Of a DNA stretch of 16,864 bases, positions 7,740-8,448 are shown piece after piece. Made by a program: the position numbers and the translations under genes. The stretch comes from a virus: the IMG/VR virus record IMGVR_UViG_3300028920_000354. The stretch is one strand, 5' to 3'. The notes under the pieces are model-generated. The model saw only the letters and a program-made list of their open reading frames with translations. It ran no database searches and was not told the DNA's origin. Positions within the stretch are counted from its first letter, which is position 1. Every line of letters begins with the position of its first letter.

Positions 7740-8171
7740 ATGAAACAAACAATTAGGGAATTTAAGGAAGAGTTAAAAACGCTCGCCGCCAAGATCCGAG
7801 GCGACAGGAAGGATTTCAGGAAAATCAATTCCAGGATAGACAGAAAATTCGGACATTGCGCCTTTTGGGAGCACAAGTACAATACGCCAATGTACAATGA
7901 GCTGTCCAAAAAGATGAACGAGAAGATGGCTGAGCTCCGTGATGTTAAGGAAGTTGTTTTTGGCGACAAGAACTACGACCATTTTACGCTCCAGAGGATG
8001 AGCCGGGAGTACAGGCACAGGCACATCGCCTACTGCGAACTCCGTGGACGAACAAGGGAGCAGATAGAGAGACCAAGGGAGGGGAACGAGCCCGATGAGA
8101 AACTTATTGAATCTATTAAAGAAAATCTTCGGAAGAAAGCCAATGAAGAGGCTATATGTGCTGGTTCGTAA
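7740..8171 (+). CDS. highly charged hypothetical protein (143 aa)
   Basis: AAGGAG RBS; K/R/E-rich sequence. Confidence 0.55.
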   Translation: MKQTIREFKEELKTLAAKIRGDRKDFRKINSRIDRKFGHCAFWEHKYNTPMYNELSKKMNEKMAELRDVKEVVFGDKNYDHFTLQRMSREYRHRHIAYCELRGRTREQIERPREGNEPDEKLIESIKENLRKKANEEAICAGS

Positions 8172-8448
8172 GGACCTACACCCCATATATGCTTGCGTCC
8201 AGGGTGGTCATGCTGTCGCTGAATTTGCGATAAACCACCCTGGAGCATTCAAAGAATGGATGAACGGGTACCTCATTTACTTGAATGGAGGTGCCTACCG
8301 TTCTATGCTGGGGTGGCTAGATAAACTTACTCTCGAATATCCAGACCTATCTTGGAGTGCCTTTAAAGAGCCTGACTTGGATGGGCAGATTACGGCCATT
8401 GCAGTTTATTGCGACGGCCGTATTTTTGAAAGAGTGAGAACCTTATGA
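8143..8448 (+). CDS. PTH2-family (archaeal/eukaryotic-type) peptidyl-tRNA hydrolase-like protein
   Basis: MKRLYVLVRKDLHPIYACVQGGHAVAEF resembles the PTH2 N-terminal signature (K.V.VVR.DL.MgkGK.aAQ..HA). The C-terminal ITAIAVY resembles TVLAIGP. Start chosen at the internal ATG at 8143 (GGAAG RBS) rather than the frame's first ATG at 8095. Confidence 0.45.
   Translation: MKRLYVLVRKDLHPIYACVQGGHAVAEFAINHPGAFKEWMNGYLIYLNGGAYRSMLGWLDKLTLEYPDLSWSAFKEPDLDGQITAIAVYCDGRIFERVRTL

Follow-up and report, generated by a model that had tools for sequence, protein, structure and literature searches.

The viral DNA analyzed here, IMG/VR virus record IMGVR_UViG_3300028920_000354, is 16,864 nt long; this whole stretch is referred to below as the window. 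It contains two overlapping genes followed by a tRNA array. Gene A (7740-8171, + strand) encodes a 143-residue all-helical protein that belongs to no known family and carries the motif YRHRHIAYCELRGRTREQIE...NEPD. This gene had been overlooked in an earlier, sequence-only reading of the same DNA. The gene next to it (8143-8448, +) encodes a 101-residue protein with the fold of peptidyl-tRNA hydrolase 2 (Pth2); its family is phage-restricted and distinct from canonical Pth2 (PF01981), and we refer to it as PTH2-like. Gene A ends in TAA, its last 29 nt overlapping the start of the PTH2-like gene, which ends in TGA. An amber-suppressor tRNA(CUA) (8861-8931, +), called by ARAGORN and scoring 57.1 bits with the Rfam tRNA model, opens the array. 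Its cloverleaf is normal, with an A1-U72 pair and discriminator A73, and no CCA end is encoded. The conserved unit is protein A, the PTH2-like protein, and the suppressor tRNA, and the window has all three.

The sequence-only reading had placed a PTH2-like gene at 8143-8448 at the edge of a tRNA island, and both statements hold. The open reading frame (ORF) is present, has many homologues, and has a conserved start; it lies at the 5' edge of an island of seven tRNAs (8861-12934, ARAGORN), of which tRNA(CUA) is the first. The encoded protein opens with MKRLYVLVRKDLHPIYACVQGGHAVAEF. An alternative in-frame start at 8095 would give a 117-residue form. The start at 8143 is the conserved one: homologues open with MKRLYVL at their own N-termini, and the gene caller used for the source contig likewise gives 101 residues. 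A word-indexed search retrieved 83 homologues at E <= 1e-3, mostly 90-130 residues long and unannotated, and an exhaustive search with the PTH2-like protein retrieved 2,499 cluster representatives at the same threshold. The PTH2-like ORF is therefore not a chance ORF.

The PTH2-like family is closely linked to suppressor tRNAs. In about 130 related phage loci, a family member is followed on the same strand by a suppressor tRNA, with a spacer between stop codon and tRNA that is mostly 5-85 nt. The suppressor anticodon is CTA in most loci and TCA or TTA in some. The context sample comprised 80 IMG/VR loci that encode a relative and were scanned for tRNAs; a suppressor comes first among the downstream same-strand tRNAs in almost all of them, with TCA in L041, L042, and L048 and TTA in L072. 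Clustering the proteins at 80% identity gave 34 lineages, 32 of which have a downstream tRNA. In 29 of these 32 lineages, the tRNA that comes first downstream on the same strand is a suppressor, versus 3.05 expected for a random pick among the tRNAs of the locus; the naive Poisson-binomial P of ~4e-30 is overstated, as the lineages are related. At 65% identity, 11 of 13 clusters show the suppressor pattern, and in a further, Lak-like cluster a TTA tRNA located ~700 nt upstream is the sole tRNA in 20 kb. Beyond IMG/VR, gp79 of Mycobacterium phage ScoobyDoobyDoo is followed by a tRNA(cta) 180 nt on, the huge phages LR745208 and LR756500 have a TTA tRNA at 36 nt and a CTA tRNA, respectively, and the same arrangement is found in Lak phages and in a contig of a Bacillota metagenome-assembled genome (MAG). 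Two variations in geometry were observed. In the Lak-type megaphage loci L077, L078, L081, L093, and L094, a TTA-anticodon tRNA lies ~500-700 nt upstream of the PTH2-like gene, and in the IMG/VR Lak-like loci that tRNA is the only one in 20 kb. In L044, L047, L053, and L057, the A/PTH2-like pair sits between two suppressors, a 96-nt TCA tRNA ~870 nt upstream and a CTA tRNA 35 nt downstream.

The surroundings of the unit are not conserved. The tRNAs that follow the suppressor vary between loci, and no flanking protein family other than gene A occurs in more than 7 of 36 representative loci. The module is also found inside arrays with tRNAs on both sides. The geometry put forward in the sequence-only reading, in which the gene flanks a tRNA island, is not the conserved one: the unit of A, PTH2-like gene, and suppressor persists even where the suppressor is the sole tRNA nearby. 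A reading of the gene as a mere edge marker of tRNA arrays was rejected as well, since it has tRNAs on both sides in some loci and a suppressor as the sole tRNA within 3 kb in others. The stop codons of the PTH2-like genes are also informative. The 25 CTA-linked genes end in TAA (12) or TGA (13) and never in TAG, whereas two of four suppressor-free genes end in TAG. When the suppressors were compared with their anticodons masked, the best match was another suppressor for 22 of 33 module suppressors, versus a 6.5% suppressor share, and the TTA suppressor of L072 has a CTA form as its nearest match. These likenesses suggest that the module has traveled as a unit within which anticodons have changed. 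The linkage itself appears to be under selection because the surroundings are shuffled, the hosts are diverse, the anticodons change, and the cognate stop is avoided. The earlier proposal that the biology of this gene is tied to the suppressor tRNA is supported, the link being much tighter than proposed. The acceptor stem is 7 bp long and fully paired in all 33 module suppressors; G1-C72 occurs in 28 and A73 in 26. The idea that they evade host Pth1 through a 1-72 mismatch or an odd acceptor stem was rejected, because these features are like those of ordinary tRNAs.

A homologue of A ends between -17 and +88 nt from the PTH2-like start in 31 of 36 representative loci. In an independent seeding, an IMG/VR search with gene A gave 56 loci; the PTH2-like gene is directly next in 54 of them, at gaps of -37 to +174 nt, and a CTA suppressor is the first tRNA after the pair in 46, being the sole tRNA within 3 kb in 16 of those 46. 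At least seven natural fusions join A and the PTH2-like protein in one chain (P0116, P0125, P0127, P0136, P0207, P0230, and P0260). Protein A is rich in conserved Arg and His. The partnership is solid, because seeding with gene A recovers the pair and because fusions exist. A type II toxin-antitoxin-like pair is unlikely, as the single-chain fusions point to a cooperating unit.

The relationship of the PTH2-like protein to Pth2 was examined by structure prediction and profile comparison. The AlphaFold2 model has a mean predicted local distance difference test score (pLDDT) of 97.1 and a predicted template-modeling score (pTM) of 0.90, and in a Foldseek search of the PDB its 14 top matches are all Pth2, Bit1, or Atu0240. 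As modeled, the protein is of the PTH2 alpha/beta fold seen in archaeal and eukaryotic Pth2. A family alignment of 62 of the 83 homologues was compared by hhalign with an alignment of five solved Pth2 sequences (residues of Pth2 are given in S. solfataricus numbering), yielding a probability of 89.9% and an E-value of 1.7e-6 over 85 columns. Gln20 and His23 are paired with Pth2 Gln22 and His25, Glu76 with Asp86, and Thr84 with Thr98; the Gln, the His, an acid at the Asp86 position, and the Thr are the only Pth2-invariant residues that are kept. The sole match in a PDB profile search was M. jannaschii Pth2 (2zv3), over 33 residues at an insignificant E of 1.5, and this alignment covers exactly the N-terminal signature that had been quoted in the sequence-only reading. 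Seven of the 62 homologues match PF01981 weakly (best E 5.3e-6). The resemblance to the PTH2 fold noted from the sequence is therefore borne out by hhalign and by a structure model that matches Pth2-type structures only. The profile check suggested with it, a direct match to PF01981, fails for this protein; the predicted fold is compatible with the PTH2 alpha/beta architecture. In PHROGs, the protein falls into phrog_3668, 'hydrolase' (E 2.3e-13, residues 1-95 against profile positions 2-103 of 152), a label that is also carried by the homologues from Aeromonas phage 65 and Seunavirus.

The family has a conserved residue set of its own. Among 150 representatives with a mutual identity of at most 50%, Gln20 is conserved in 145, His23 in 147, Trp39 in 145, Asn41 in 145, Glu76 in 146, Pro77 in 140, Asp78 in 139, and Thr84 in 139, with Tyr16 in 113. 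These nine residues are putative active-site residues as judged from their conservation. The structural elements that bear them are those that bear the motifs in Pth2, and selection thus appears to act on the same face of the fold, but for different chemistry. We therefore describe the PTH2-like protein as a divergent, phage-specific member of the PTH2-fold superfamily.

The family is essentially confined to phages. Among 185,579 bacterial and archaeal species genomes (one genome each), only two loci were found, both on MAG contigs. GenBank phages that carry it include Lak megaphages, other huge phages, a Myrnavirus mycobacteriophage, Aeromonas phage 65, and Seunavirus, and the Myrnavirus member is annotated as 'peptidyl tRNA hydrolase.' The label 'peptidyl-tRNA hydrolase' on such phage genes derives from the fold and nothing else, which calls for caution in annotation. 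Two distant relatives lie in other surroundings. In Seunavirus phages, as in Salmonella phage vB_SEnST11_KE23 (L086), a 163-residue 'hydrolase' has no suppressor tRNA within 3 kb; its gene (2992-3483 of that locus) lies ~650 nt downstream of the gene for tRNA nucleotidyltransferase, the CCA-adding enzyme (1086-2339). The 194-residue homologue of Aeromonas phage 65 lies between gp30.2 and DNA ligase.

The mechanism that we favor, at a little short of an even chance, is that the PTH2-like protein and protein A make up an acyl-tRNA esterase of two proteins, which is co-transcribed with the suppressor and clears the peptidyl-tRNA arising from read-through. The PTH2-like protein would work together with the helical protein A, probably as a complex. 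Their genes would share one transcript with the amber-suppressor tRNA that follows, and the tRNA is very probably on that transcript because the spacers are too short for separate transcription signals. The likeliest chemistry would be cleavage of the ester between the acyl (peptidyl) group and the 3' end of the tRNA. This assignment is suggested because the fold is known for peptidyl-tRNA ester hydrolysis and because the protein has a conserved polar patch with His, Glu, and Asp. The catalytic patch would be formed by the conserved Q-x-x-H, W-x-N, E-P-D, and T, which fall where hhalign puts the Pth2 motifs. Suppressor-driven read-through of stop codons would allow many ribosomes to reach mRNA 3' ends and stall there. 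Peptidyl-tRNAs that have dropped off, or that stay bound to split subunits, would sequester tRNAs, and the A/PTH2-like module would release those tRNAs so that phage translation goes on. In keeping with this scheme, suppressor-driven read-through creates non-stop situations that are handled by transfer-messenger RNA (tmRNA) (Ueda 2002, as cited in PMC3985003), the functions of tmRNA and Pth are physiologically connected in E. coli as indicated by the title of a 2004 paper by Singh & Varshney (listed in PMC5966550), and phage PTH2 has been viewed as a rescue or recycling factor (PMC7824862; PMC5966550).

Several observations weigh against this mechanism. The single protein of the window has no sequence match in NCBIfam, the PDB, or Pfam (0 families at E <= 10), and its relationship to PTH2 is therefore visible via profiles and structure only. 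Residues that are invariant in Pth2 are absent: Lys16-Gly17-Lys18, Gly53-Gln54-Lys56, Gly88, Thr90, Pro94-Gly95, and the C-terminal GP..D..TG.LKLL. The GKGK lysine loop is deleted, with Tyr16 nearby, as is GQxK; the Thr90 position aligns to a variable Asp, Asn, or Gly; and the C-terminal motif Gly103-Pro104...Thr114-Gly115-x-x-Lys118 is absent or shortened throughout the family. Lys18 of Pth2 was reportedly found by Fromant and colleagues, in 2005, to be important for catalysis. Membership of the protein in canonical Pth2 (PF01981) is not supported by these comparisons, and peptidyl-tRNA hydrolase activity cannot be assumed because most Pth2-invariant residues, including the GKGK loop, are missing. 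The chemistry may differ from that of Pth2, or the protein may only bind. The phage itself shows no in-frame TAG signal in the 36 kb covered of its 95,131-bp contig (ENA ERZ27252253, k141_2989609), a part outside the structural genes, and all of these 36 kb fit the standard code; three of 27 window ORFs end in TAG. A gain in ORF length from reading TAG as sense is clear only in the Lak-like locus L077, by a crude metric that is confounded by AT-richness. The link from read-through to a peptidyl-tRNA load is also indirect, as non-stop rescue by tmRNA or ArfB needs no free-standing Pth. Lastly, suppressors work without the module. In a reverse sample of 57 CTA suppressor tRNAs from IMG/VR, retrieved by a tRNA-only pattern that selects suppressors with one T-loop sequence, eight (14%) have a PTH2-like gene within 2.5 kb upstream, six of them with protein A as well. 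The dependence is thus one-sided: suppressors often occur without the pair, and the core-family pair almost never occurs without a suppressor. An enzyme for general clean-up should also benefit phages that have no suppressor, whereas the core family hardly ever occurs in the absence of one.

Because the dependence on the suppressor is so strict, a suppressor-specific function fits about as well as clean-up, and the main rival explanation has the suppressor tRNA itself as the substrate of the A/PTH2-like pair. Aminoacyl-tRNA(Sup) might be deacylated, to proofread mischarged suppressor or to gate the time at which the stop codon can be read, or peptidyl-tRNA(Sup) might be the specific target of hydrolysis, with A providing tRNA recognition. 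We consider this explanation rather unlikely. In its favor, the core family almost always has the suppressor directly after it, even where the suppressor is the sole tRNA nearby, and an active-site make-up unlike that of canonical Pth2 leaves room for another acyl substrate. The mutual likeness of the module suppressors would fit a protein pair and a tRNA that have co-evolved, but it may simply reflect descent of the whole module from one ancestor. A negative regulator co-transcribed with its own target would be awkward, the acceptor stems (G1-C72, A73) offer no obvious handle, and the A and PTH2-like sequences of TCA-linked loci are closely related to those of CTA-linked loci, with no sign of anticodon-specific recognition. 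In a more general formulation, the pair would be a dedicated accessory of the suppressor tRNA that controls its acylation, the proofreading of its charging, or its recycling. The PTH2 fold would then have been re-tooled, with a new active-site set and an added subunit, for a substrate other than bulk peptidyl-tRNA. To this formulation we give a better chance than to the narrower one, while still leaning against it.

It is improbable that the gene is instead a generic housekeeping Pth that helps heavy translation with a large tRNA set or relieves peptidyl-tRNA build-up in general, its position beside the suppressor being inherited synteny. PTH2-like genes are common in phage tRNA arrays and in jumbo phages (PMC5966550, PMC7824862), distant relatives occur without a nearby suppressor (Aeromonas phage 65, beside DNA ligase; Seunavirus), and the module tRNAs look monophyletic, which makes a single origin plausible. 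Inherited synteny, however, does not account for a neighborhood that is otherwise shuffled, in which the next-best flanking family reaches only 7 of 36 loci and the neighboring tRNAs differ. Nor does it account for an adjacency that survives in phages of Prevotella, Bacillota, and Mycobacterium and across anticodon changes, or for the avoidance of the cognate stop codon by the gene.

A non-catalytic role is slightly less probable still. Here, the PTH2-like protein and A would bind the 3' end of the suppressor or the ribosome, for example to protect the suppressor, to aid its maturation or delivery, or to act in competition with release factors. The loss of the Pth2-invariant lysine loop and GQxK motif, and the obligate partner with its many conserved Arg and His residues, are consistent with a binder. 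The near-invariant polar cluster of Gln20, His23, Asn41, Glu76, Asp78, and Thr84 is what one would sooner expect of a catalyst than of a mere binder. CTA, TCA, and TTA suppressors are accompanied by the same subfamilies of A and of the PTH2-like protein, which makes a release-factor-specific antagonist, and anticodon-specific recognition in general, unlikely.

GNAT toxins acetylate aminoacyl-tRNA, and Pth is known to reverse that modification. A counter-defense enzyme that undoes host toxins blocking tRNA acceptor ends, such as these, would suit a window rich in genes of this kind (NAD salvage, NADAR, NUDIX, RNA ligase, HAD_SAK_2, and the GGQ protein described below) and window tRNAs (Lys, Asn, Asp, and Gln) of the kinds targeted by anticodon nucleases, but it leaves the near-universal suppressor adjacency and the avoidance of the cognate stop unexplained, and we judge it very improbable; the related suggestion in the sequence-only reading, that host defenses deplete tRNAs, found no specific support.

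The region between the PTH2-like gene and the suppressor has features of its own in the window. The spacer is unusually long, at 412 nt, and holds an ORF and a tRNA-like element. The uncertain 86-residue ORF (8445-8705, +) has an ATG that overlaps the PTH2-like stop codon (ATGA); it has no Pfam or PHROG match, is not called in the source contig, and lacks a conserved counterpart in related loci. The tRNA-like element, likewise uncertain, spans 146 nt (8712-8857, +), with 3 nt between it and the suppressor tRNA. Its 7-bp acceptor-like stem (AACGGGG/CCCCGTT) is perfectly paired, its T arm, GTGGGTTCGAGTCCCAC, is canonical, and a D-like arm is also present. Where an anticodon arm would be expected, there are instead about 100 nt of additional hairpins; the minimum free energy fold has z = -2.3. 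ARAGORN makes no call at default settings, and the Rfam matches are sub-threshold (tmRNA 3' end, E 0.03; YrlA, E 2e-4); at a relaxed threshold, ARAGORN calls a tRNA-Val(tac) with a 57-nt intron. Candidate identities are a tRNA with an intron, a decayed tRNA, and a tRNA-like element. Upstream of gene A, a sigma-70-like promoter match (7595-7623, +; TTGACT-17-TATATT, 10/12 matches) is a possible, weak candidate for the start of an A/PTH2-like/tRNA transcription unit; sigma-70-like sites are no more numerous in the region than expected from shuffled sequence.

Downstream, the seven window tRNAs include two tRNA-Lys(UUU) genes in tandem (9785-9938, +) with 5 nt between them and, after these, tRNAs for Asn, Asp, Gln, and Trp, and the array extends past the window to 21 tRNAs in a 20.7-kb locus (L083). 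Within it lies a protein with a GGDEF diguanylate cyclase domain (10564-11388, +; E 2e-41). The 3' end of this ORF overlaps tRNA-Gln (11368-11440) by ~20 nt, and the source annotation uses a later start, giving 252 residues. The sequence-only reading had also pointed to an ArfB/PrfH-like gene about 6 kb downstream, unrelated to the PTH2-like gene. Such a gene is found 6.3 kb downstream (14733-15092, +), and the two proteins do have different folds. Its 119-residue product has a GGQ motif and a Pfam RF-1 domain (E 3.5e-16) without codon-recognition domains. It lies in an RNA-repair-type cluster (13803-16262, +) comprising an RNA ligase (13803-14471), a 72-residue ORF, the GGQ protein, HAD_SAK_2, a 'Swiss Army Knife' RNA repair HAD (15089-15592), and an MmcB-like nuclease-fold protein (15597-16262). 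The context of the GGQ protein is thus one of repair, of the PrfH type rather than the ArfB type. The gene is uncalled in one copy of the source contig (L083), and it is not conserved beside the module, with 0 tblastn matches in 34 loci. Of 34 representative loci, 6 also have a phage tmRNA gene no more than 10 kb from the module. The tmRNA loci are L003, L014, L016, L045, L046, and L069, plus relatives, and their tags end in ...YAIAA, ...LAA, or ...RMAA. The GGQ protein is the sole release factor (RF)-related gene of the window, and no aminoacyl-tRNA synthetase and no RF1 or RF2 was found among the window ORFs scanned.

On the other side of the module, a 938-residue phage-encoded protein (2610-5426, +) has major vault protein domains (MVP_shoulder, E 1.2e-26; Vault_3, E 1e-10) and is preceded by a radical S-adenosylmethionine (radical-SAM) gene (1754-2599). 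Genes related to nicotinamide adenine dinucleotide (NAD) are NADAR (378-860) and a NUDIX-NrtR regulator-like gene (5488-6204). Upstream of the window on the same contig, positions 4967-9795 of L085 encode NAD synthase, an isochorismatase/nicotinamidase, NAPRTase, and a MazG + cytidylyltransferase-like protein. Together, the NAD-related genes look like a salvage or counter-depletion set. The phage has no megablast relative among 50,697 phage records.

A PTH2-like gene in a phage tRNA array is not new. Such genes have already been described in phage tRNA arrays and in jumbo phages (PMC5966550; Iyer et al. 2021, PMC7824862), and Morgado & Vicente 2018 (PMC5966550) reported one in ~96% of the tRNA arrays of cluster C mycobacteriophages. 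They resemble the window's gene in kind and in type of location, and homology to the window protein is detectable for the Myrnavirus member. In PMC5966550 and PMC7824862, the word 'suppressor' occurs 0 times, and the upstream partner gene and the fusions are not mentioned. The suppressor pairing, the partner protein, and the fusions were not found in the literature searched, which left out most subscription journals, and a full-text search on PTH2, phages, tRNA, and stop codon returned nothing. Our analysis suggests that the family is a previously undescribed protein accessory of stop-codon read-through in phages. In the question of how suppressor-carrying phages achieve and survive read-through, tRNAs, a few synthetases, and release factors have so far been implicated. 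The three-part unit of a helical protein, a PTH2-fold protein, and a suppressor tRNA is easily recognized and occurs in phages of unrelated hosts with all three suppressor anticodons. With two small proteins and one tRNA, it also offers a cheap and concrete handle for experiments. If the pair clears damage from read-through, then suppression has a cost that phages pay to offset. If it acts on the suppressor itself, then it would set the timing and the efficiency with which a stop codon is read as sense, and it would be a new regulator of genetic-code switching, perhaps useful in engineered suppression systems.

The closest known proteins are the Pth2 enzymes (MJ0051, 2zv3; P. horikoshii, 1wn2; S. 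solfataricus, 1xty; human PTRH2/Bit1, 1q7s), which share an alpha/beta fold of four strands plus helices in ~100-120 residues and are the best and nearly only structural matches of the phage protein. Both groups have the signature (V/I)hhR.DL...aQ..HA, the acid at Asp86, and the Thr98 position. The phage family differs in its own invariants (Trp39, Asn41, and E-P-D), in being ~15-20 residues shorter, in its restriction to phages, in its obligate partner protein, and in its suppressor tRNA neighbor. The bacterial PTH2-fold protein DUF2000/Atu0240 (PDB 2gax) has 8-9% identity to the phage protein and, unlike the phage family, is longer (135 residues) and cellular; none of the 62 aligned homologues matches DUF2000 by sequence. 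Phage rescue factors, namely tmRNA and the ArfB/PrfH GGQ proteins, presumably share the theme of freeing nascent chains from stalled translation complexes, but their folds and mechanisms are unrelated, and the GGQ factors work in the ribosomal A site. The nearest parallel in gene organization is the 'code change module' of stop-codon-recoded phages described by Borges et al. (bioRxiv 10.1101/2021.08.26.457843), which consists of a suppressor tRNA, an aminoacyl-tRNA synthetase, together with a release factor; the preprint mentions no hydrolase. As in that module, a suppressor tRNA stands beside protein genes written in the standard code, and the PTH2-like gene never ends in the cognate stop. 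Unlike in that module, a PTH2-fold protein and protein A take the place of the synthetase and of RF1 or RF2.

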